Part shown: piece by piece, positions 3,034-64,000 of the stretch
Position numbering within the stretch: position 1 is the stretch's first letter
Layout: the number at the start of each line of letters is the position of its first letter
Assembly: GCA_001629255.1 (NCBI GenBank)
Contig: LURZ01000001.1
Span: 6,850 to 70,849 of the forward strand
Source of the DNA: Marine group II euryarchaeote REDSEA-S42_B7
Lineage (GTDB): Archaea; Thermoplasmatota; Poseidoniia; Poseidoniales; Thalassarchaeaceae
Length of the DNA: 64,000 nucleotides
Direction: 5' to 3'
Program-made: the position numbers and the translations under genes
Notes under the pieces: generated by a model
Seen by the model: only the letters and a program-made list of their open reading frames with translations
What the model was told of the DNA's origin: nothing
Database searches by the model: none

Positions 3034-4113
3034 ATGGGGAACACAATCAACTATCCGAGGAGATCGAATAGTGCAACCACTGCTAACTTTGCGATCATCG
3101 TCCTAGTGGGATATCTGGTACTCACATACCTCAAGCCGATTTTAATGCCGTTTTGCATAGCAATTTTGATCTATTTCCTTATTAGGGCTCCAGAGCAGTA
3201 CCTAGTCGCTCGCTTCGAGATAGTTGAGAGGATGCCAATACTGGCATACGGCGTCATGATAGGAATCGGCGCTGCGATTTCGTATGGGATTTCGATTCTT
3301 CTGTACAGTAATATCGATCAATTTCAAGAAGAGATGACCAAAGATGGGGGACTAAATGACAAATTCAGAGAGAAGTGGGATGCTTTGGGAGAGACCAACC
3401 TCTATGGGTTCGAAGAAGTGATTACCAACCAGGACACAATTGAGAACCTGGTGAATCCTCAGGTCATTCAGGACTTTGCGACCAACATTCTCGCTGACTT
3501 TGCGACTTTCATCACTACCATGATAACAGTAGCAGTATTCCTCATCTTTTTGATTCTCGAGGAGAAGAGCCTTCCAAACAGGTTCAGGGCAGCGTTCCCA
3601 GAATCCCACGGTAGAGTTAGTGCGATTGTATCCAATTCGTCTGAGGCGATTTCTACCTATGTTATCTCCAAGGCCACGTGTAGCGCAGGTCAGGCTATCA
3701 TACTCGGATTTTTACTCTGGTCGTTCGATATACCCGGATGGTTGATTTTCGCGATTCTTACATTCATGATGGACTGGATCCCCCTGTTGGGGGCCCTGCT
3801 CGCCACCATCCCTCCGATGATGATAGCCTTGATTGCTCTCGATCCAGCTCAGGCCGTCTTGCTTGGAGTATTGATGGTGATGAATCAGAATTTGTGGGCG
3901 CAACTAATCGAGCCTAACTTCTTCGGGCAGAAACTCGGTATTTCTCCCTTAGTACTTATCCTGACGGTCATGGTCTCTGCATCGGTCTGGGGGATAAGTG
4001 GGGCGATTGTTGGCGTACCCATCATGATAATCGCAAGAATCGCACTCGAAGAGGACGAGAGAACCCGGCCAATCGCTCTCATGCTAGCAATGAATGTTCA
4101 CGAGGAAGAGTAG
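3034..4113 (+). CDS. AI-2E family (PerM/YhhT-like) membrane transporter
   Basis: Multi-pass membrane protein with the characteristic C-terminal block FMMDWIPLLGALLATIPPMMIAL. The length and TM pattern fit PF01594. Confidence 0.6.
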   Translation: MGNTINYPRRSNSATTANFAIIVLVGYLVLTYLKPILMPFCIAILIYFLIRAPEQYLVARFEIVERMPILAYGVMIGIGAAISYGISILLYSNIDQFQEEMTKDGGLNDKFREKWDALGETNLYGFEEVITNQDTIENLVNPQVIQDFATNILADFATFITTMITVAVFLIFLILEEKSLPNRFRAAFPESHGRVSAIVSNSSEAISTYVISKATCSAGQAIILGFLLWSFDIPGWLIFAILTFMMDWIPLLGALLATIPPMMIALIALDPAQAVLLGVLMVMNQNLWAQLIEPNFFGQKLGISPLVLILTVMVSASVWGISGAIVGVPIMIIARIALEEDERTRPIALMLAMNVHEEE

Positions 4114-24422: not shown

Positions 24423-24497
24423 TGGTGCGAGTGCCGGGATTTGAACCCGGGTTCCCACGTTGGCAACGTGGGGTGATAACCGCTACACTACACTCGC
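24423..24497 (-). tRNA. tRNA-Gly (anticodon GCC), CCA encoded
   Basis: The reverse complement folds as a canonical cloverleaf. Acceptor GCGAGTG/CACTCGC, anticodon stem CCACG/CGTGG with loop TTGCCAA (anticodon GCC), T-arm CCGGG-TTCAAAT-CCCGG, discriminator A, then CCA. Confidence 0.85.
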
Positions 24498-50002: not shown

Positions 50003-50881
50003 TCAAATTCTTTCTTCCCTGTTTCCAGATGTCCAGTCGTAAATCCCCTTTCCTGTCTTTTTACCCAAATTTCCGGATTCCACCAGTTTCTTTAGTAGTG
50101 GGTGCGGTTTGTAGGAATCGTCCTCAAAGGCCTCCGCCAAACTATTCAGAATATCCATCCTAACATCGAGACCCACTAGATCGGATAACTCCAAAGGTCC
50201 CATAGGATGAAGATAACCTAATTTCATCGCAGTGTCAATATCACTTGCTGATGCAACTCCTTCTGCCAGCATTCTGATTGCCTCATTACCCAATACTACT
50301 CCCAATCTACTGGTAGCAAATCCTGGAACGTCATTTACTAGTATCGTGGTCTTGCCCATAGACTCCCCTACTTTTTTAGAAATCGCAATCGTTTCCTCTG
50401 ATGTTTCTCCGTGCTTCACTATCTCGAGTAATGGCATCAGCGGGACTGGATTGAAGAAGTGCAAACCGACAAACCTCCAGGAAGTTTGGATTTCAGTGGC
50501 AATCTCCGTAATGGAAAGCCCCGAGGTGTTTGTTGCTAGGACTGCTTCCTTGGGTGCCAAACCCTCGAGTTTCCGGAAGACCGACTTCTTCAAGTCAATC
50601 TTCTCGGGGACTGCTTCTATAATCAGGTCCATACCTCTGGAAGCCTCACTTATGTCGGAGGTAGTACACAGGTTAGCCTTCCATGATGAAACCTCAACCT
50701 CTCCCGTCTTACCTTTCTCTATACCCTTCTGCCAGAAATTCAGTATACTCTCCTCGCCCTTCTTCAGAGATTTAGGAAACGCGTCGTAGAGTACAGTTTC
50801 CCATCCGGTCTGAGCGCAAACCTGGGCTATCCCAGATCCCATAGCGCCAGCGCCGATGATGCCCACTTTCCGAATTACCAC
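50003..50881 (-). CDS. 3-hydroxyacyl-CoA dehydrogenase (NAD-binding)
   Basis: VGIIGAGAMGSGIAQV Rossmann motif plus a C-terminal 3HCDH domain. The start is probably the GTG at VVIRKVGIIG (about 50881), which avoids a 60-nt overlap with the upstream gene. Confidence 0.8.
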   Translation of the reverse strand: MVIRKVGIIGAGAMGSGIAQVCAQTGWETVLYDAFPKSLKKGEESILNFWQKGIEKGKTGEVEVSSWKANLCTTSDISEASRGMDLIIEAVPEKIDLKKSVFRKLEGLAPKEAVLATNTSGLSITEIATEIQTSWRFVGLHFFNPVPLMPLLEIVKHGETSEETIAISKKVGESMGKTTILVNDVPGFATSRLGVVLGNEAIRMLAEGVASASDIDTAMKLGYLHPMGPLELSDLVGLDVRMDILNSLAEAFEDDSYKPHPLLKKLVESGNLGKKTGKGIYDWTSGNREERI

Positions 50882-50915
50882 GAGATGCGGAGAGCACCTC
50901 TCCCCATAAGCCGTA

Positions 50916-51488
50916 CTAACCCTCACGCCCGTATGCCGCGAGTGCTGACTGGAACAGTCTTTGTCGCGGTACGTCATGCTCTAGGAAGCATGTGAATGGC
51001 GCCACGTCTTTCAAAAGCTCAATCGATGAAATGTATGCGCCATAGATGAATGGGTCCGCACTCTCTGTGGAAGGAATCTGGATACCTAGCTTTGACAGGC
51101 CTTTCCTGGTATCTTCGTCCCATATCGAGTAGGTGTGGTGAGTGAAGTGAAGATAAGCGGAGAGCCTCCTAACATCGGATCTCGCCTTGTCGGTCAAACT
51201 CTCGATAAGAAGGGTGTCTGGATACTTGATTGCGTACAGGGATAGCAGCACTTCTCGCTGTGTTTCCTCTTTCCATTCTCTCTTTCCGAGGCCCATCCAA
51301 TCGTCAATCATATCTAGCATCTCGGGAGTGTAAGGTCTGCGGACTTTGTATAGCAACTCCTCGTATGAAGAAGCATCCTGGTCATCGGAGTGATGATGGT
51401 CGTGGAAGAGATCAGTCAGTCTCTCAAAGAACGGTCGACATGCCTCTTTGTCAAATGAGGATAGCGCAACATGCTGCATTATGGTCAC
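50916..51488 (-). CDS. hypothetical protein (possible accessory subunit of the adjacent di-iron oxygenase)
   Basis: Helical and His-rich near the N-terminus (HDHHHSDD). It begins with GTG 5 nt after the oxygenase stop, in another frame. Confidence 0.3.
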   Translation of the reverse strand: MTIMQHVALSSFDKEACRPFFERLTDLFHDHHHSDDQDASSYEELLYKVRRPYTPEMLDMIDDWMGLGKREWKEETQREVLLSLYAIKYPDTLLIESLTDKARSDVRRLSAYLHFTHHTYSIWDEDTRKGLSKLGIQIPSTESADPFIYGAYISSIELLKDVAPFTCFLEHDVPRQRLFQSALAAYGREG

Positions 51489-51493
51489 CTCGT

Positions 51494-52651
51494 CTATTTA
51501 CCCTTCCATTCTCTGTACTGTATCCAGTCTTCCTTCATATACACGTTAACCAGGGTATCCTCGTCCTCATCGGTAGGAAGTACGGAATCCAAATAGGCCC
51601 GATATTCTTCTTCCGACCCTTCGAAGGATTCACCTTCTACAGTGTAATTCTTCCCTGCATACTTGCCTATGCCCCTCTTGAACTTATCAGAGGGGATGTA
51701 CAACTCGGGCTCTCCTTCCTTGCGGGCCTTACTGATCCTGCCCATCTCTGCCCTGAGCTCCTGAAAGTAGAGGTCTCTGCTGGCCTCATTCAGGTGCTCT
51801 CTGTCTGCTTCCGTGTCAGCCTCTCTCTCGTCGTACCTACCTTTAATTCCGTAGACGTATGCCCACTCCGCGCTGCTGGAGTCATCTGTTCCGAAAAGGT
51901 CCAATCCGGTGCTAACCCACTTGTTGATGTATTTCTGAATGAGTGAGCAAGGGATCACTCCCTGCTTGACTACCCTACGAAGCCCGTTCGCTCCGGTTCC
52001 AAGGTGGAATGACTCTTCCTTCAGCATTGGTCCCATACTCGCAGCTAGTGGCTTGAAAGAAGAGGTGCTCAGCATCTTCAACTGGTACTTCCCGTCCCGG
52101 TCGATGAAGTGGGTGAACATGAAGAAGTCCAGCCAGTGGTCTATTGGCTCGTTGAAGGATCCAAGTATCCGAGTTCCCTCCTGAGCGTTCCTCTCGAGAA
52201 GCTTGGCGGCTTCCCTTACTCCTTGTTCGCCGAAGAACGTGCATAGCAGGTAGGCCATCTGCCAACCGTGCCTCTGTTCCTCGCACATTATTCTCAAGGC
52301 CGATTTTTTGTCATACTCGGTCGGCGCTGTTTCTAGGAGATGGTTCTGCTGTTCGACGCTGGCGAACTCGGTGTCTCCTTGGACGCTGACCATAGTCAGA
52401 ATCGCGTCAGTGATGTTCTGTTGCGGAATTTGCATCCTCCTCTCCCACTTGGGCATGCCCTCGAAGTCACCAAACTCTATTTCTGCTCCTGCTGTATCCC
52501 AATCGAATTTGATATCGAAGCTGTAATCGCCCAACCATGAGGGATCGAACCCGATTCTAGTCTGCCAGTCATTGAACATTTCAATCCAAGACTCAAAGTT
52601 CGTCGGATAATTTTGAACTATGTCAGTATCTGTCATGCTTTGCCCCAACAT
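51494..52651 (-). CDS. di-iron oxygenase of the PaaA/BoxB (acyl-CoA epoxidase) family
   Basis: Two E-x-x-H carboxylate-bridged di-iron motifs (MCEEQRHGW and LKEESFHLG) in a ferritin-like helical protein of 385 aa. Confidence 0.45.
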   Translation of the reverse strand: MLGQSMTDTDIVQNYPTNFESWIEMFNDWQTRIGFDPSWLGDYSFDIKFDWDTAGAEIEFGDFEGMPKWERRMQIPQQNITDAILTMVSVQGDTEFASVEQQNHLLETAPTEYDKKSALRIMCEEQRHGWQMAYLLCTFFGEQGVREAAKLLERNAQEGTRILGSFNEPIDHWLDFFMFTHFIDRDGKYQLKMLSTSSFKPLAASMGPMLKEESFHLGTGANGLRRVVKQGVIPCSLIQKYINKWVSTGLDLFGTDDSSSAEWAYVYGIKGRYDEREADTEADREHLNEASRDLYFQELRAEMGRISKARKEGEPELYIPSDKFKRGIGKYAGKNYTVEGESFEGSEEEYRAYLDSVLPTDEDEDTLVNVYMKEDWIQYREWKGK

Positions 52652-52697
52652 TAAGGGGTATTTCAGAGGTTGCTTTTCTTATCTACAAATGGACAGC

Positions 52698-53591
52698 CTA
52701 CTTTCCTTCAAACCTAGGTGTTTTCCTGTCAACGTATGCCTTGATACCTTCCTTTGCGTCTTCCGATTGGAATAGATCAGATTGCAATTCTCTTTCAAGA
52801 GCAAGATGGTACTCAAGCGGTATCTCCATGCCACTTTGCACGCTTCTCTTGATGTTCCCTATTGCCTTTGAAGCTGCGAATGGTAGCGAGAACCTTCCAG
52901 CGTAGTCAAGAACGTCCTGCCTAAACTCATCTAGGCTCAGTGAGTCATAGATGTCATGCACTAGATCCATTTCCCTGGATTCCTCGAAAGAGAACTTCCT
53001 TCCTGTAACCATTATCTCCATTGCTTTGGCTTTTCCGACCAGTCTAGACAGTCTAGCCGTTCCACCGGTACCTGCCAATACTCCGAGAGCGACCTCAGGC
53101 AGTCCTACCTGGTAATTGCCCTTTCTGGCTATCCGAATGTCAGCGGCCATTGCAATTTCCAGTCCGCCCCCAACCGTATGTCCGTTAAGTGCGGCTATGA
53201 CCAACTTGGGAGTCTGCTCCAAACGTGACAGAGTTTCGTTGGCGTGCAGGCAAAAGAAGTACTTGTATCTCGGAGACAGAGTGTTCAGATACTTTATGCT
53301 GGCACCTGCAGAGAAGAATTTTTCACCGTGTCCAGTTATCAGGATTACCGACACGTCATCATTGAATCTTGCTTCAAGTATGGCATCGTCAATGTCGTGC
53401 CACATCTCCCTTGTGTAGGTGTTCACCGGTGTCTTATCCCCCTCGAGTGGATCTCCGGCGGAATCGGAAATGAGCTCAATAATCGCGACTCCGTTTTTTG
53501 TCTCTCCGTAGTTAACGAGACGATTCTTCATGGGTTTAAGTTCTGGCCAAGACGTCATGCTCTCACGACTTAGTCCAGCCATATCAATCAA
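52698..53591 (-). CDS. enoyl-CoA hydratase/isomerase family protein
   Basis: Crotonase fold (LNGHTVGGGLEIAMAADIRIA). Confidence 0.75.
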   Translation of the reverse strand: MIDMAGLSRESMTSWPELKPMKNRLVNYGETKNGVAIIELISDSAGDPLEGDKTPVNTYTREMWHDIDDAILEARFNDDVSVILITGHGEKFFSAGASIKYLNTLSPRYKYFFCLHANETLSRLEQTPKLVIAALNGHTVGGGLEIAMAADIRIARKGNYQVGLPEVALGVLAGTGGTARLSRLVGKAKAMEIMVTGRKFSFEESREMDLVHDIYDSLSLDEFRQDVLDYAGRFSLPFAASKAIGNIKRSVQSGMEIPLEYHLALERELQSDLFQSEDAKEGIKAYVDRKTPRFEGK

Positions 53592-55883: not shown

Positions 55884-56831
55884 ATGCCTACGGCTGACCT
55901 AATTCCAGATTTTCTCAAGGCCACAGAGGCTGCAGCTATCGCTGCTTCAAGTTGGAGGGGGCTAGGAGATGGAAAGGGGGCCGACGGAGCCGCTGTCGAA
56001 GCAATGCGTGCAATCTTCGACGCTGTTCCTTTCGATGGCAGAGTTGCCATTGGTGAGGGCGAGAGGGACGACGCTCCAATGCTGTGGATTGGAGAGCCTC
56101 TCGGATCTAAGCAAGGAGATCCAAATTATCCATCGATAGACATCGCTGTTGATCCTCTTGAATGTACCAATCACGTAGCAAATGATCTCCCAAATGCAAT
56201 GGCAGTACTGGCCGCAGCCCCAAGGGGGACCCTATTGCATGCTCCGGATTGCTACATGGACAAGATAGCAGGGCCTTCAGAGATATTCGACGCTGTTAGC
56301 TTGGAGGCAGATGTCGATTACAACATCGAGGGAGCCTCAGATGCATTGGGTAAGAGCCCATCCGAAATGCAAGTAGTGGTGATGGATAGGCCCAGGCATA
56401 AAGACTTGATTAGAAATCTGAAGGATATGGGAATTTCTCCGGTGCTGATTGGTGATGGGGACATAGCTGCAGCACTGAACGCTGCTGATCCTGATTCAGA
56501 GATTGATATGTTGATGGGGATAGGGGCAGCCCCGGAGGGAGTGATTACAGCAACGGCTCTAAGAGGTCTCGATGCTCCATTTGAGGGAAGACTTGTGTTC
56601 AAAAACGAAGGACACCGGGAGAGAGCAGAGGAAATGATCGAAGGAGATGTAGAGAGAATCTGGTCACGGGACGAACTCTGTTCGACGGAAGACTCGATTT
56701 TCATTGGTACAGGTGTTTGTGACGGCAGAACAAAAGGGGTTGAAGACCTTGGACAAGGGTCCTATACTGTTCATTCCGAGATTATAGATGTCAAATCAAA
56801 AGAACACTACTTCGTTTCAACTACAATTTAG
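55884..56831 (+). CDS. glpX: class II fructose-1,6-bisphosphatase (GlpX-type)
   Basis: N-terminal EAAAIAASSWRGLGDGKGADGAAVEAMR plus metal-binding Asp/Glu blocks. Length is 315 aa. Confidence 0.75.
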   Translation: MPTADLIPDFLKATEAAAIAASSWRGLGDGKGADGAAVEAMRAIFDAVPFDGRVAIGEGERDDAPMLWIGEPLGSKQGDPNYPSIDIAVDPLECTNHVANDLPNAMAVLAAAPRGTLLHAPDCYMDKIAGPSEIFDAVSLEADVDYNIEGASDALGKSPSEMQVVVMDRPRHKDLIRNLKDMGISPVLIGDGDIAAALNAADPDSEIDMLMGIGAAPEGVITATALRGLDAPFEGRLVFKNEGHRERAEEMIEGDVERIWSRDELCSTEDSIFIGTGVCDGRTKGVEDLGQGSYTVHSEIIDVKSKEHYFVSTTI

Positions 56832-56895
56832 AGGGGGAAAACACTGACGATGGTTTCTTTTCTTACTGCCCCCTCCATTACTCCGAGGAAAGAAG

Positions 56896-57915
56896 ATGGA
56901 TAGGGAATTGTTGGAAAAAAATGCAAGATTTTTGGTCTCCCCAGGAAGAGGCATACTTGCTGCAGATGAGAGCAACGGGACGATGTCCAATCGCTTGGAA
57001 GCAGTAGGTGTAAAAGCATCATCTGATACCAGAAGGGAATACCGTGTCAATCTCTTCTCCACGGAGGGTTATGAATCTGCAATTAGTGGTGTTATACTAT
57101 TTGATGAAACAATCCGTCAGACAATGAAAGATGGGACTCCAATACCCTCCGAACTTTCCAATAGAGGAATCCTCCCAGGAATAAAGGTCGACACAGGAGC
57201 GAAGGAACTGGCCAATCATGAGGGTGAGAAAATCACAGAGGGACTAGATGGACTTCGAGAAAGATGTTCTGAGTATTTCGCAATGGGTGCCAGATTTGCT
57301 AAATGGCGTGCGGTAATTAAGATCGATGCAGGACTTCCGACCAAGGCGTGCATTAGTGCTAATGCACATGCCTTGGCAAGGTACTCAGCAATCTGCCAGG
57401 AGCAAGGGCTAGTTCCTATAATCGAACCAGAGGTTCTGATGGACGGGGACCATGATGCTAACAGATGCTACGAGGTAACGGCAGAAATTTTGGATGCCAC
57501 ATTCTCTGAGTGTGAAAGCCAAGGTGTACATATTCCTGGAGCTTTGCTAAAACCAAATATGATAATTCAAGGCAATGATTGTGAGAACCAGACTTCTAGA
57601 GAGGAGGTTGCAAATCTCACTGTCGAATGTCTAACTAATCATGTTCCTCACAATCTCCCTGGGATAGTATTCTTATCTGGGGGACAATCTGACGAAGATG
57701 CCACAGCACACCTCAATTTGATGAATAAGATGACTTCCGAGCATCCTTGGGAGCTATCATACTCCTATGGTAGGGCATTACAAGCCGACGCCCTTCAAAA
57801 GTGGGCGGAGGCTACCGGTGAATCTGATATATCTAGCCAAAAAGCATTTTCGCATAGGGCGAAAATGAATAGCTTGGCAAGGTTTGGAGACTGGAGTCAG
57901 GACCTAGAGTCGTGA
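56896..57915 (+). CDS. fba: class I fructose-bisphosphate aldolase (eukaryotic/ALDO-type)
   Basis: N-terminal GRGILAADES, the Schiff-base Lys context (GALLKPNM) and the C-terminal LSGGQSDEDA. At 339 aa it is close to the 360-aa eukaryotic class I enzymes. Confidence 0.85.
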   Translation: MDRELLEKNARFLVSPGRGILAADESNGTMSNRLEAVGVKASSDTRREYRVNLFSTEGYESAISGVILFDETIRQTMKDGTPIPSELSNRGILPGIKVDTGAKELANHEGEKITEGLDGLRERCSEYFAMGARFAKWRAVIKIDAGLPTKACISANAHALARYSAICQEQGLVPIIEPEVLMDGDHDANRCYEVTAEILDATFSECESQGVHIPGALLKPNMIIQGNDCENQTSREEVANLTVECLTNHVPHNLPGIVFLSGGQSDEDATAHLNLMNKMTSEHPWELSYSYGRALQADALQKWAEATGESDISSQKAFSHRAKMNSLARFGDWSQDLES

Positions 57916-58424: not shown

Positions 58425-61049
58425 GTGTCAGATGCTTCCCGATTCGTCCATGATGAGCCGAAGAAAATCAGAAGTAAGCACCGTCGCAGGATTCTCTCCC
58501 TGCTCTCGGATGGTGAAGCCACAGTCTCTCTTTTATCTTCAGAGTCAGGACTCAGAATGCCTCACGTGTCTGCTGAGATCAGTCGTATGAGGGCCGAGGG
58601 GCTGGCTACAAGTGACCTTCCCCCTGGTTCTAGGGGTGCAAGAATCAGACTCACTGAGGATGGTTGGAGCGCTCTAGAGGATGACGAGTGGTCGAAAGTA
58701 ATTGAGTTGAAGGCACCATCCTCAAACTCAGATTTCTGCTGTGTATTATCCCGGGACGAAGAAAATCTAACCTTGTGTTTTTTGAGCGTTCCAAGAGAAC
58801 CCTTGGTGCAGATTCCAAACCGAATCGCGACCCTAATCCCAGAGACTACTACGTCCACAAGAAACACAGGGGTCTCTTGGAGTTGGGCAGTTCTTTCTGA
58901 GGCTAACCCTCGTTGGTTCGACAGAGAGAAAATGATAATCCTAGATTCACCTCCGGAGTTTGCCGATCCAGGAAGTATAGAGTCATATTCAGAAAAACCA
59001 CAAATCTTCGGAGTTATCAGGGCCAAGCTCGTGCGCCAATCTTCTAACTCAATAATTTCACCGGGTGAATGGTTTTCTCAACCAAACCAGATTTACACTG
59101 CTCCATTGGACGAGGCTACTCATCACAGAGGAGATTGGACTCTTGGCTCACCCCATAGCAAATCGCCGGATGTTAGACCGACTCAACCAATTGTTGCTAC
59201 CATCAAAGAAAGACTTCCACTTTCTGTTCTACTCAGGTCAGCCAGGTCAAACTCGCTGGTAATTGCAGATCTTAGAGGATTGGGAATGGAAGGCGAAGAA
59301 TACCCCATCGGGGCACTTAGATATTGGATTAAAAAAGCCCATCCTAGGCTTTCAGAGGCTGAAAGGAGAAGGAGATTAAACTCGTTGATCGATAGGATTT
59401 CATCCTCTAGAAGAATAAAGGTTCCAGAGTCTACGATTAGAAAATTTAGGAAGGACTGGGCGGGAAGAAAATTCTCAAACGATGAATCGGCAATCAGATC
59501 AATCGAGTTGAGGGGTCTGAGTAAAAACGCAACAGAGTCCATAATCAGGTGGTCCATGGATAATGATTCAACTCCATTAGTGATAGAGATCAGGCATAAT
59601 TTGCCAAGTGAATTAATGTCTAGAATTGCATCTAAGCAGAATCTTAGACTAGTAATCTTCGACCACCTACCAGATCAATTCTTTTCATTCACTGTGCTCG
59701 AAGTTGATAGGATTCGAACGCTTCCTTGGTTGAGTTATCGTACTAGTAAGGGAGAGAGGATACCAGTAAGGATGGTAGAAAGAGGAAAAATCACAGACTA
59801 CCCAGCAGAACCAGAGAACACAACAATTTCTCCATGGCAAATCTTGAAACTCCCTTCTGAGGATGATGAGTACAAACAAGAAATTGCAAGAAATTCAGCT
59901 TCAATAATTAGCTCTGCCGTCTCACAATTTCCCGATGGCGATGAGGAGTGGGCGAATCAAATGGAGGCAATGTATCCACTCGCGTCCTGGATAGCATCTC
60001 CAAGGACAACTAGGTGGCAAAGATGGCAGAGAGTTTCCACGAGGTTGGATTCAGAATGGATAGCACTACTTGATCTGGATTATGTTCCAATTGAGAAGAT
60101 TTCAGAATTGGCCAATCAAGCCCCGAAATCAGTAAAGGAAATTTTCTCACGAACCTTAACTTCAAAACTTAGAGAGAATCCGGATAATCTGTTAAGATCA
60201 TGGCCAGCAATAGATCCAAGTCGAGCCAATTCAGGTGCTTCTTGGCTGGCATCCCACTTTATTCAGAACTCAGCTTGGATGCCTAAAGAGACGCATCATG
60301 ACATCATTGGCTGGGCCGTTGAGGCGTGGCTATCCAACCCCCCTGCTGAATCTCTTGGGGCTCTAGATGGCATTAACTGGCTCTTTACTTCTGGAAATCT
60401 AGAGAAAGCGGTTTTCAATAGTCTAATTATAAGAATTAGAGACATCGGAACCTCACTCCCTAAGGGACATCACCTCAACACTTGGTCTAGGCTTCATGAC
60501 CACGCTTTAGGGAAAAGAGAGGCTAAACTGGAAGATATACAATTATTCATCACACATATCCCCAATTCATGGTGGGTACCATTTTCATCAGAATTCTTGA
60601 AAATGATACTGAATAGTGCCATTACAGACGAATTCTTCAGTGTAAATATTCCTTGGTGTTCAAATGTACTTAGGCCGAAAGGAGAGGTTTCATATTTTCC
60701 AGGCCTATCTTCTAAAATTAATCAGGGATGTGATATCGAAATTTTCCCTTTACTGCAGAACTACTTACGATCAGTTAGTTCCGAGGTAGGAGATGTCAAT
60801 TCTATGAATCATCTCTGGGATTTGCTATCTGCGTTAGAATCAGTTAGAGAAGGCTCTAACCCATCTGTTGGGCTTTCTCATAAACTATCAGGCTGGCTAG
60901 CACAACCACTTGAGAAATGGCCCAACTTCACTCTGGAGATGATTATGGATGGAGACAAAGACGTTTCAGAAAGTCTAATTCTTCGGAAATCTGGATTTCA
61001 CGAAGGTCTTAGAAATTTCGATAGTTCTGCTCAACCGTTGGGTTCTTGA
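58425..61049 (+). CDS. large hypothetical cytoplasmic protein with N-terminal HTH/winged-helix-like segment (ORFan)
   Basis: 874 aa with no Walker or TM motifs, and an N-terminal RRRILSLLSDGEATVSLL… HTH-like region. GC is lower than the window average, and the gene is preceded by an AT-rich repeat-containing region. Confidence 0.4.
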   Translation: MSDASRFVHDEPKKIRSKHRRRILSLLSDGEATVSLLSSESGLRMPHVSAEISRMRAEGLATSDLPPGSRGARIRLTEDGWSALEDDEWSKVIELKAPSSNSDFCCVLSRDEENLTLCFLSVPREPLVQIPNRIATLIPETTTSTRNTGVSWSWAVLSEANPRWFDREKMIILDSPPEFADPGSIESYSEKPQIFGVIRAKLVRQSSNSIISPGEWFSQPNQIYTAPLDEATHHRGDWTLGSPHSKSPDVRPTQPIVATIKERLPLSVLLRSARSNSLVIADLRGLGMEGEEYPIGALRYWIKKAHPRLSEAERRRRLNSLIDRISSSRRIKVPESTIRKFRKDWAGRKFSNDESAIRSIELRGLSKNATESIIRWSMDNDSTPLVIEIRHNLPSELMSRIASKQNLRLVIFDHLPDQFFSFTVLEVDRIRTLPWLSYRTSKGERIPVRMVERGKITDYPAEPENTTISPWQILKLPSEDDEYKQEIARNSASIISSAVSQFPDGDEEWANQMEAMYPLASWIASPRTTRWQRWQRVSTRLDSEWIALLDLDYVPIEKISELANQAPKSVKEIFSRTLTSKLRENPDNLLRSWPAIDPSRANSGASWLASHFIQNSAWMPKETHHDIIGWAVEAWLSNPPAESLGALDGINWLFTSGNLEKAVFNSLIIRIRDIGTSLPKGHHLNTWSRLHDHALGKREAKLEDIQLFITHIPNSWWVPFSSEFLKMILNSAITDEFFSVNIPWCSNVLRPKGEVSYFPGLSSKINQGCDIEIFPLLQNYLRSVSSEVGDVNSMNHLWDLLSALESVREGSNPSVGLSHKLSGWLAQPLEKWPNFTLEMIMDGDKDVSESLILRKSGFHEGLRNFDSSAQPLGS

Positions 61050-61059
61050 ACAAATCTGC

Positions 61060-61345
61060 AGGCGTGGTATTGCCCAGCCGGCAACACCGTGCGGACAAAA
61101 CCCCCTCGCCGGAGGTGGAGGATGAAACACGGCACCACGGATTGGGTGACCATCCGTCGAAGACCATCGTGACTCTTCCGAGAGAATGATTGATGGCGCA
61201 AATCGGGTGGCCGGACTGCGTAGGTCCCCTGAGGACGGAATAGAATGAATCAAGGGACTACCCCGCAGTCCGACAGACGTCCTGGGGTGGGTCAGGCGCC
61301 AGAGCAAAGCAGTGAAGGTTGCCGTTACGCCCCGGGGCACACTGA
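61060..61345. ncRNA. candidate structured non-coding RNA of unknown class; strand undetermined
   Basis: A GC-rich (about 58%) segment of about 280 nt between two plus-strand genes, in a region that is otherwise about 40-45% GC. It contains perfect nested helices, for example GGACTGCG…CGCAGTCC enclosing GGTCCC…GGGACT. The only ORFs across it are Arg/Pro-rich nonsense. I found no RNase P P4 motifs and only a loose SRP helix-8-like stretch (GGGTCAGGCGCC…AGCAG). Confidence 0.3.
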
Positions 61346-61362
61346 AATTTCAGGTGTTTTGG

Positions 61363-62397
61363 GTGGAGAAAAAAAAGCACGAAATAGGATTAATTGGTGG
61401 TACTTTTGATAGATTCCATGCCGGACACATGTCCTTGATCTCTGCAGGTCTTGCAAATTGCGAGAAAATCCAAGTCTGGATAACCAATGATAATTTAGCT
61501 AGGTCGAAGGATCAGCGTATCCAGGACTGGTATGACAGGGAGTCCGATTTGATCGACGCCACATCAGAATACTCCCCTCGAATCACAACTCATCAACTCG
61601 ATGACAAATTCGGACCATCCTTGCAATCTACTGAGGCATCAGCAATTATATGCACTGCTGAAACAATTCAGGGATGCTTGGAAATCAACTCTATCAGGGA
61701 AAAAAATGGATTTTCTCCTCTAGATATTATTTCCGTTGAGAGAGTCACTTCTTGGGATGGGAGGACAATTTCTAGCTCCAGAATCAGAGATGGTCACATT
61801 GACAGGGAGGGGATGCCATGGATTCCCGAAAATTTCAGAAATTCAGACCCAATTATGACTCCCGAGGTAGAGTCCCAACTCAAAGAACCATTTGGCGAAC
61901 TAATCGAGGGGCCCGAGGAGGATATCACCGTGGCTGCTTTGGAAGCCATCTCTAAGATAGTGGGATCTACAAAATTCTCCGGCCCACTAATTGCCGTCGG
62001 AGACGTCACCGTCCTGGCCTTTCAGAATTCAGGAAGACCAGCAGACATAGCAATAGTCGACGGACAAACTAAGCGCGAAAAATGGGAGGGCTCGAATGAA
62101 ATTGACTTCAGTTTGTATGATAATTCCCTCGAATGTATCAGCCCAGCAGGATCTTTATCCAGATCGCTCCTAAAATCATGTGAATCCTCAATCTCATCAT
62201 GGATGGAAAACGAAAGCAGCAGCATAATCAGAGTAGTCGGTGAAGAGGACCTGTCTCCGCTTCTTCTACATCCGATGGCACCCATTGGTTCTGTAGTAAT
62301 CTATGGTCAACCGGGAAAGGGGTTAGTCATTAGGTGGTGTGACGAAGAATCAAAGATCAGATGCAGAAATATCCTCAGAGGTTTTTCCACAGACTAG
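61363..62397 (+). CDS. bifunctional phosphopantetheine adenylyltransferase (archaeal PPAT, HxGH nucleotidyltransferase) / GTP-dependent dephospho-CoA kinase (DUF359) fusion
   Basis: N-terminal GLIGGTFDRFHAGH (HxGH cytidylyltransferase motif). The C-terminal half has LIAVGDVTV…RPADIAIVDGQTKRE, resembling the DUF359 dephospho-CoA kinase VGDVV…DxxTxR block. The start was moved downstream of the structured GC-rich segment. Confidence 0.55.
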   Translation: MEKKKHEIGLIGGTFDRFHAGHMSLISAGLANCEKIQVWITNDNLARSKDQRIQDWYDRESDLIDATSEYSPRITTHQLDDKFGPSLQSTEASAIICTAETIQGCLEINSIREKNGFSPLDIISVERVTSWDGRTISSSRIRDGHIDREGMPWIPENFRNSDPIMTPEVESQLKEPFGELIEGPEEDITVAALEAISKIVGSTKFSGPLIAVGDVTVLAFQNSGRPADIAIVDGQTKREKWEGSNEIDFSLYDNSLECISPAGSLSRSLLKSCESSISSWMENESSSIIRVVGEEDLSPLLLHPMAPIGSVVIYGQPGKGLVIRWCDEESKIRCRNILRGFSTD

Positions 62398-62971: not shown

Positions 62972-64000
62972 CTATAGATGACCTTGAAGATTATACTTGC
63001 CCATTGCGGCTTCGTTAACCAGAGTTTCACTTTCACTCATTAGGACGATTGCATCTATAGCCTTTGGAATTGCCGAATTAACTTGCTTGCTTCGCCCACC
63101 TCGGCCTTTGCTGACGTTTCTTGCCATGATAAGTCCCATTGTATCCAATTCATTAAGCAACGAGGAGACCCTTCTGGTCGTTAATGGCTCTGTACCAATC
63201 TTCGAGCACGCTTCTGCGTAGGTTCTGTACACTTCGCCCGTTGAGATGTTTCTCAGGCCGTTCTCTTCGTTTAAGCAGATTGAGAATAGTACTAACTTTT
63301 GGTGAAGTGGCAGGGTCTTGATAACAGGAGTCACCTGATCATATTCTAGTTGACTTTGGGCCAATCTAACGTGTTTTGTATCTACTCTATTCTGCGACCT
63401 CTGTTCCGCTTTCTGTACCGAGATTCTAAGCAAATCCAAAGCTCTTCTTGCATCTCCATGCTCTTGCGCAGCCAATGCCGAGCACAGTTTGATTACTCCA
63501 TCGTCCAGGACACCGGCTTTGATTCCCATATCAGCCCTCTCGTTGAGAATATTCTGAATCTCAGTGGCCACGTAAGGGTGGAACACTATATCCTCTTGGC
63601 TCAGTCTTGAACTGACTCTTGGATCAAGGTGTTGAGTAAAATGTAAGTCATTGCTGATTCCGATAATTGAGCATCTCCCCCTGCTTAGCAAAGTATTGAG
63701 GCTGGTCAGCGCGTAAAGGAGATCATCTCCGCCCTTGTCTACCAGGTTATCCACCTCATCTAGCACGATGATGTGAACCCCTCCCACGCGGCTCATTCTG
63801 GAAACTACCGTATCAAGAACTCGATCTGTAGGCCAACCCGTGAATGGGACCGGAGCATCGCCTCTCTGAGCCAACTGGGTAGCTATGGTCTGTACAACTC
63901 TATATTTGGTATCTACATTCCTACAATTAATCTCGTAGGTATGTACGGATTGCCCCATTTCCAAGCCTTTCTCCCTTAATTGGCTCAGAACGTATCTGGT
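62972..64000 (-). CDS. cdc6: Orc1/Cdc6 replication initiator (AAA+ and winged-helix domains); N-terminus beyond window end
   Basis: Walker B/sensor region HIIVLDEVD…, sensor-2 (ARRALDLLR) and a C-terminal winged helix. The frame stays open upstream through position 64000 (…TRYVLSQLREKGLE…). Confidence 0.85.
   Translation of the reverse strand, partial: TRYVLSQLREKGLEMGQSVHTYEINCRNVDTKYRVVQTIATQLAQRGDAPVPFTGWPTDRVLDTVVSRMSRVGGVHIIVLDEVDNLVDKGGDDLLYALTSLNTLLSRGRCSIIGISNDLHFTQHLDPRVSSRLSQEDIVFHPYVATEIQNILNERADMGIKAGVLDDGVIKLCSALAAQEHGDARRALDLLRISVQKAEQRSQNRVDTKHVRLAQSQLEYDQVTPVIKTLPLHQKLVLFSICLNEENGLRNISTGEVYRTYAEACSKIGTEPLTTRRVSSLLNELDTMGLIMARNVSKGRGGRSKQVNSAIPKAIDAIVLMSESETLVNEAAMGKYNLQGHL

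Follow-up and report, generated by a model that had tools for sequence, protein, structure and literature searches.

A predicted fused enzyme for the last two steps of coenzyme A biosynthesis in marine Group II archaea, and the conserved K-turn RNA that precedes it

Marine Group II archaea (Poseidoniales) are represented here by a 64,000-nucleotide stretch of Marine group II euryarchaeote REDSEA-S42_B7 (contig LURZ01000001.1), which we call the window. Near its end lies a gene for a 344-residue protein, preceded on the same strand by a structured RNA. The protein carries an archaeal phosphopantetheine adenylyltransferase (PPAT) domain at its N terminus and a dephospho-coenzyme A kinase (DPCK) domain of the DUF359/arCOG04076 family at its C terminus, joined by a linker of only ~13 residues and with no third domain. 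Both halves belong to their families, the catalytic and motif residues are conserved, the folds agree with those of known enzymes, and the single open reading frame (ORF) recurs throughout the lineage. Supported by both family assignments and the single conserved ORF, it is very probable, as judged from sequence and a structural model, that the gene unites the last two steps of coenzyme A (CoA) biosynthesis in one polypeptide, as an original prediction made from the DNA letters had proposed. In this scheme the N-terminal PPAT would move AMP from ATP onto 4'-phosphopantetheine to give dephospho-CoA, and the C-terminal domain would phosphorylate the 3'-hydroxyl of dephospho-CoA to give CoA. GTP is the likely phosphate donor by homology with the T. 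kodakarensis enzyme TK1697.

The interpretation is right but not novel, as the fusion was published in 2019 from the same lineage. Shimosaka et al. (2019, mBio; PMC6650551) reported arCOG04076 fused to PPAT in many uncultured archaea, including group II/III euryarchaeota, and this clue led them to test TK1697, a GTP-dependent DPCK needed for CoA prototrophy. Makarova et al. (2019; PMC6393860) drew the same conclusion from the domain fusion. The published group II/III fusions (e.g., AIF21550.1; PMC6650551) share the domain order of the window protein and its marine Group II/Poseidoniales lineage; there is no material difference between them, and the window protein is another ortholog. For the enzyme itself, our analysis therefore adds little to the published picture, in which a PPAT–DPCK fusion, the standard form of both enzymes in marine Group II archaea, completes CoA synthesis there.

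The original prediction read the C-terminal half as a DUF359 kinase from the strings VGDVTV (aa 212–217) and AIVDGQTKRE (aa 230–239), a reading exposed to failure of this half to align with that family. Alignment was found by sequence and by fold. Pfam places DUF359 (PF04019) at residues 220–341 with E = 1.1e-23 and 83.7 bits, against a gathering score of 25. A sequence search of the PDB matched the GTP-dependent DPCK of T. kodakarensis (8jvc) to residues 165–340 (E = 2e-15), indicating that the DUF359-type domain begins at about residue 165 and not at residue 220. The NCBIfam matches of this half are DUF359/PRK01160 models and the Thermococcales GTP-dependent dephospho-CoA kinase equivalog, and no CoaE/P-loop DPCK model occurs among the Pfam or NCBIfam matches of the protein. 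We built an AlphaFold2 model of the full protein on the homologue alignment (mean predicted local distance difference test score, pLDDT, 90.9; predicted template modeling score, pTM, 0.75), in which the pLDDT drops to about 79–84 in the linker, and searched it against the PDB with Foldseek. The kinase half has the DPCK fold, matching 8jvg, 8jvc and 8jvf with E-values of 2.4e-13 to 1.2e-8 and template modeling (TM) scores, normalized to the target, of 0.86–0.92. The best match was 8jvg_A (E = 2.4e-13, TM 0.87), and 8jvf reached TM 0.92.

The catalytic residues point the same way. Residue invariance was judged on the window protein aligned with 21 homologues at 51–77% identity, and the three acidic residues that characterize a DUF359 DPCK (D214, D233 and D296) are all invariant. 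Their counterparts in TK1697 are Asp48, Asp67 and Asp125, of which the D48A and D67A mutants are severely impaired and D125A is impaired (PMC6650551). TK1697 (PDB 8jvc/8jvf/8jvg) is thus homologous to residues 165–340 and shares their fold, but it is a stand-alone protein of 177 residues from a hyperthermophile with ~28–30% identity to the window protein, and its GTP preference is only presumed for the fusion.

Several points weigh against a two-step enzyme and must be set beside this evidence. The Thermococcales DPCK equivalog NF041125 scores 70.8 bits against a cutoff of 300, so that functional equivalence as a DPCK is argued from the family-level model and the conserved residues. The missed cutoff means that the protein is not a Thermococcales ortholog, as expected for another order, and not that it is no DPCK. 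Nucleotide specificity is not readable from the sequence by the methods used, and the literature searched yielded no biochemical characterization of any fused protein. Finally, 64 kb of the genome were seen, and stand-alone coaD, DUF359 or CoaE-like paralogues may lie elsewhere. In a rival account, the DUF359 half is regulatory, acts on another substrate or is degenerate, and CoA is finished by a different kinase such as the CoaE-like arCOG01045. The score below the equivalog cutoff and the ~28–30% identity to TK1697 would fit such an account, and alternative kinases outside the window are beyond view; however, all three Asp residues important in TK1697 are invariant here, the DPCK fold is matched closely, and the homologue alignment shows the DUF359 domain to be under strong purifying selection across the order. 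The CoaE-like proteins of T. kodakarensis, moreover, are without DPCK activity (PMC6650551). We regard a nonfunctional or repurposed kinase half as very unlikely.

The N-terminal half resolves as an archaeal PPAT, as originally predicted from its HxGH motif. The string GGTFDRFHAGH is present at residues 12–22, and H19, G21 and H22 are invariant in the homologue alignment. In the second signature of the superfamily, ISSSRIR, residues S137, S138 and R142 never vary, and at least 90% of the sequences keep I136, S139 and R140. The top NCBIfam match is NF001985, the archaeal PPAT subfamily model, at residues 9–151 with 117.6 bits against a curated cutoff of 104 (E = 5e-34); these residues cover positions 7–151 of the 157 in the model and place the domain within the subfamily. 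The next NCBIfam matches, NF002250 and NF041124, are also PPAT models. A sequence search of the PDB matched the A. fulgidus PPAT 3do8 to residues 11–150 (E = 1.8e-12), and Foldseek recovered the PPAT fold with 3do8 (target TM 0.79–0.82; for 3do8_A, E = 6.3e-8 and TM 0.79) followed by a long run of bacterial PPATs. Archaeal PPATs such as P. abyssi PAB0944, T. kodakarensis TK2128 and A. fulgidus 3do8 are homologous to residues 9–151, and the window protein has both the HxGH and the ISxxRIR motifs; they differ from it in being stand-alone proteins of about 150–160 residues.

Were this domain another nucleotidyltransferase (a RibL-type FAD synthetase, an NMN adenylyltransferase or a glycerol-3-phosphate cytidylyltransferase), the two CoA steps would not be joined. 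Pfam matches only the generic CTP_transf_like family (PF01467, aa 10–143, E = 2e-9), NCBIfam models for NaMN adenylyltransferase/NMNAT and of the RfaE and TagD types match weakly (E = 5e-4 to 0.2), and the PDB entry of the nearest solved structure, 3do8, bears the title 'protein with unknown function', though its molecule name is PPAT. Set against these hints are the lead of NF001985 at an E-value far stronger than theirs and above its curated cutoff, the two PPAT models that follow it, and the structural neighbors beyond 3do8, which are bacterial PPATs. The original prediction had singled out a RibL-like FAD synthetase as the alternative; the FAD-synthase models listed are of the RibF type only and marginal at best (NF045965 RibF_rel, E = 0.024; NF004162, E = 0.17), and among the NCBIfam matches of the protein none is named RibL. 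Fusion to the enzyme of the next step is functional evidence in itself, of a kind that proved predictive in PMC6650551. We regard a nucleotidyltransferase other than PPAT as very unlikely, too.

The fusion itself is widespread. A word-indexed search returned 367 homologues, and the 120 listed are full length, with both Pfam domains recorded for all save two rows (PF04019 only). The window protein is 84–88% identical to the nearest database clusters. A relative is encoded in 222 GTDB species-representative genomes, with the nearest loci, among them single-cell genomes of marine Group II, at 88–94% amino acid identity; the best 80 of these 222 genomes bear Poseidoniales, Thalassarchaeaceae or Marine Group II labels, or the unspecific labels of uncultured marine archaeal metagenome-assembled genomes (MAGs). 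These matches point to a marine Group II archaeon, probably one of the Thalassarchaeaceae, as the source of the window. The architecture is that of marine Group II archaea, a single ORF with PPAT at the N terminus and arCOG04076 at the C terminus. That two adjacent genes were joined by a sequencing or assembly frameshift or a lost stop codon is a generic worry for fusion calls made on one sequence, with nothing specific in its favor here, and it is refuted by the uninterrupted architecture and well-aligned linker in hundreds of independent assemblies, single-cell genomes and MAGs, leaving it a negligible chance. The original prediction had also asked for a check on stand-alone coaD or DPCK genes; made over the 64-kb window by a six-frame hidden Markov model (HMM) search, this check found no second PPAT or DUF359 copy. 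Source names for the homologues include 'pantetheine-phosphate adenylyltransferase [Candidatus Thalassarchaeaceae archaeon]' and 'hypothetical protein [Euryarchaeota archaeon]', and a JGI entry reads 'uncharacterized protein (UPF0218 family)/phosphopantetheine adenylyltransferase'. The adenylyltransferase name alone, or 'hypothetical protein', under-describes the fusion.

Eukaryotic CoA synthase (COASY) catalyzes the same two reactions in one polypeptide and in the same order, PPAT and then DPCK. In COASY the DPCK domain is of the CoaE type, a P-loop kinase unrelated to the DUF359 fold of the window protein. To go by its sequence, the window protein is a functional analogue of COASY and not a member of that family, and the unrelated kinase domains indicate that COASY and the archaeal fusions arose independently. 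According to PMC6650551, the DUF359 fold is derived from the Rossmann type and has thiamine pyrophosphokinase as a relative. The original prediction had drawn the COASY analogy with both halves taken as non-homologous. It holds for the two reactions and for the kinase half, but the PPAT half belongs to the same family: archaeal PPAT is 'eukaryotic-like' in the title of Armengaud et al. (2003), as cited in PMC6650551, which leaves the kinase half as the only part without homology to the eukaryotic enzyme. If both activities and the GTP preference reside in this protein, as its two domains suggest, the fusion may be of advantage through stoichiometric co-expression or substrate hand-over, and the protein would offer a compact mesophilic 'archaeal CoA synthase' for the study of GTP/ATP use and of such hand-over.

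We next consider where the gene begins. The longest ORF in this frame spans 61312..62397 (+) and encodes 361 residues counted from its first GTG; the GTG at 61363 is in frame with it and yields 344 residues. The start at 61363, which the original prediction had used, is preferable to 61312 and gives the best gene model (Table 1), because codons 1–10 of the longer ORF overlap the conserved upstream RNA, which ends at 61342, because an AGGTG that may serve as a ribosome-binding site precedes the 61363 GTG by 6 nt, and because homologues start close to the conserved IGL, most of them beginning two residues ahead of it. Database versions of 361–384 residues are over-extended. Such false N-terminal extensions are frequent in public gene calls (P0001–P0006, P0009, P0010 and other homologues of 361–384 residues); examples such as MKVAVTPRGTLK… or MNQGTTPQSDRRPGVGQAPERS… are the translated 3' part of the upstream RNA gene. 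Extensions like MNQGTTPQSDRRPGVGQAPERS… correspond to DNA 5' of the window gene read in another frame, and they hinted that conservation is higher in this DNA than in the enzyme. Many database entries for the fusion protein are thus wrongly extended, with gene callers translating an unannotated RNA gene.

Table 1. Features of the PPAT–DPCK locus, in window coordinates.
Feature	Position	Strand	Details and basis
Four-hairpin K-turn RNA, 272 nt	61071..61342	+	blastn conservation and covariation; sets the 5' limit of the fusion gene
Shine-Dalgarno-like AGGTG	61352-61356	+	6 nt 5' of the GTG at 61363; read from sequence
Predicted bifunctional PPAT–DPCK gene	61363..62397	+	344 aa plus stop, GTG start; ORF list, domain matches, homologues, model
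PPAT domain, archaeal/eukaryote-type nucleotidyltransferase (aa 9-151)	61387..61815	+	NF001985, 3do8, Foldseek
HxGH nucleotide-binding motif, H19-A-G-H22	61417..61428	+	read from sequence
ISSSRIR motif (aa 136-142), second signature of the nucleotidyltransferase superfamily	61768..61788	+	sequence; aligns with ISSTRIK of 3do8
Interdomain linker (aa 152-164), ~13 aa	61816..61854	+	gap between end of PPAT match (aa 150-151) and start of DPCK match (aa 165)
DPCK domain (aa 165-340), DUF359/arCOG04076	61855..62382	+	8jvc, PF04019, Foldseek
Asp214 (VGD), equivalent to TK1697 Asp48	62002..62004	+	8jvc alignment; invariant
Asp233 (IVD), equivalent to TK1697 Asp67	62059..62061	+	8jvc alignment; invariant
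Asp296 (GEEDL), equivalent to TK1697 Asp125	62248..62250	+	8jvc alignment; invariant

The upstream RNA sits between a gene for an 874-residue protein and the PPAT–DPCK gene. A blastn comparison places it immediately 5' of the PPAT–DPCK gene in each of the 80 Poseidoniales loci fetched, at 72–98% nucleotide identity, and in every one of them (80/80) the fusion gene follows 20–60 nt downstream on the same strand. At one locus (L007) the RNA is 93% identical and the enzyme only 64%. Conservation begins at TGCCC and stops sharply after GGGGCACAC; past this conserved ACA end, runs of T follow in many lineages.

Folding 46 non-redundant copies with RNAalifold revealed four consecutive hairpins. Over 69 base pairs, five of them added to the RNAalifold set, 96.2% of the paired cells are canonical and 28 of the 69 pairs show compensatory changes. 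The observed values were reached in none of 500 shuffles, and the signal collapses when pairing partners are slid by 1–3 columns. The RNA can be assigned to the plus strand from its conserved G-U pairs. From its base upward, each hairpin has a lower stem, an internal loop of invariant sequence, an upper stem of 5–7 bp and, beneath a small apical stem, a canonical kink-turn (K-turn) in which tandem G·A pairs come after a 3-nt bulge. Hairpins 3 and 4 each have an invariant ACA behind them, and conservation ends at the second of these. In a scan of all columns against all for covariation that might reveal pseudoknots, phylogenetic correlation dominated, and no usable result emerged.

We interpret this RNA as a probable divergent H/ACA small RNA (sRNA) of the Pab40/HgcG type that has one more hairpin at its 5' end. 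HgcG/Pab40 is a three-motif H/ACA sRNA of Pyrococcus that guides pseudouridylation of 23S rRNA; its targets in P. abyssi are 23S positions 2588, 1932 and 2016. Archaeal H/ACA rules call for a helix H1 of at least 7 bp, an internal-loop pocket, a helix H2 of 5 or 6 bp, an apical K-turn or K-loop, and an ANA box 14–15 nt from the target (Muller et al. 2008; PMC2377435). Hairpins D1, D2 and D4 fit the H1, pocket, H2 and K-turn rules with helices supported by covariation; D3 forms the stems and the K-turn, but its pocket is nearly absent. The ANA box of D4 is the invariant ACA that comes immediately after H1, at 15 nt from the pocket top. There is an ACA behind D3 as well. In D1 and D2 the spacing is right, but the ANA box is lacking. 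The Pab40/HgcG/Pf7/Afu4 family (RF00064) is of similar length (a 276-position model against ~272 nt) and likewise has consecutive K-turn hairpins, H2 helices of 5–6 bp, pockets, and an ACA after each of the last two hairpins. The Poseidoniales RNA differs from it in the extra 5' hairpin, the lack of an ANA box in D1 and D2, a score below threshold and rRNA targets that are only presumed.

Rfam 15 at its gathering threshold detected the RNA in none of 16 Poseidoniales sequences (the window and 15 loci), and the window copy has no Rfam match even at E ≤ 10. The copy at one locus (L059, positions 3746–3947) aligns to positions 58–268 of the 276 in RF00064 with similar pocket sequences (E = 1.6e-4), at 22.7 bits against a gathering score of 77. 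Rfam searches of L078, L067 and seven whole loci did not reproduce this match, so the link between the RNA and HgcG is drawn from one clade (that of L059) together with the structural rules. A search for guide targets of the D1, D2 and D4 pockets in E. coli 16S and 23S rRNA, used as a proxy for Poseidoniales rRNA, found no convincing complementarity, an outcome that says little about targets in Poseidoniales themselves. It appears that Rfam thresholds miss an RNA that looks like a divergent multi-hairpin H/ACA guide.

Other identities were considered for this RNA. Signal recognition particle (SRP, 7S) RNA was suspected since GGUCAGGCGCCAGAGCAAAGCAGUGAAGG resembles domain IV of E. coli 4.5S RNA, and was rejected for want of any Rfam match at E ≤ 10. 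RNase P RNA, considered for its K-turns and for strings resembling CR-IV and CR-V, was rejected with no Rfam match and no P4-like pairing. Covariation backs four independent hairpins and no helix that closes the 5' and 3' ends, which counts against both. That the RNA acts on the CoA gene in cis, as a regulatory leader or a riboswitch, is unlikely, given the four K-turn hairpins, the sharp ACA end with its T-runs and the resemblance to H/ACA sRNAs.

Co-transcription of the RNA with the CoA gene is possible. In the window the spacing between RNA and gene is short and leaves no room for a separate promoter, and the enzyme mRNA might therefore come from read-through or processing of the sRNA transcript. 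A scan for sigma-70 promoters and intrinsic terminators, a type of scan not applicable to archaea, found nothing above background.

More distant fusions were sought with HMMER in an exhaustive comparison against 1.84 billion representatives, which returned 3334 matches at E ≤ 1e-3 and 213 at E ≤ 1e-30; among the best 150, the majority are full-length fusions at ~30–35% identity. A search from one homologue (P0143) placed distant PPAT–DUF359 fusions in bacteria of the candidate phyla radiation (CPR; Candidatus Gottesmanbacteria, Woesebacteria and Levybacteria) and in DPANN archaea (Norongarragalinales), groups in which such fusions are common; examples are P0291, P0315, P0336, P0254, P0365, P0354 and P0372, and locus L082 (8001–9098). 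One Gottesmanbacteria copy lies on a 194-kb contig beside MreB, glycosyltransferase and pentose-phosphate genes, a bacterial context. We found no description of the PPAT–DUF359 fusion in CPR or DPANN in the searchable literature. If the fusion serves as the terminal CoA enzyme in many CPR bacteria and DPANN archaea, it would suggest that the fused two-step module was transferred between domains of life. That this transfer occurred, and that the Poseidoniales enzyme mRNA also arises by read-through or processing of the sRNA transcript, is taken together a tentative and rather doubtful proposal. Some distant fused homologues carry additional sequence: P0341 (589 aa) contains a Glucosamine_iso domain (PF01182), and P0200 (530 aa) and P0220 (523 aa) have N-terminal extensions of ~175–190 residues.

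The neighbors of the fusion gene are not CoA-biosynthetic, with the 874-residue protein upstream and a membrane protein and an Orc1/Cdc6 homologue downstream. The 874-residue protein (58425-61049, +) has as its sole recognizable feature a weak N-terminal ArsR-type helix-turn-helix match (PF01022, aa 18–62, 21.6 bits against a Pfam cutoff of 22), and its C-terminal end and its position 5' of the RNA are conserved across Poseidoniales. The Orc1/Cdc6 homologue (62972-63964, −) has lid and winged-helix domains and lies near the window end; its N terminus may be truncated or its start misplaced, and there could be a replication origin in the vicinity. Farther upstream (50003-53591, −, and 55884-57915, +) are genes for a 3-hydroxyacyl-CoA dehydrogenase, a PaaA/PaaC-like protein and an enoyl-CoA hydratase, which point to CoA-dependent catabolism of fatty acids or aromatic compounds and adjoin a GlpX-type fructose-1,6-bisphosphatase and a class I fructose-bisphosphate aldolase. 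The sole RNA that Rfam or ARAGORN found in the window at standard thresholds is a tRNA-Gly(GCC) at 24423-24497 on the minus strand.

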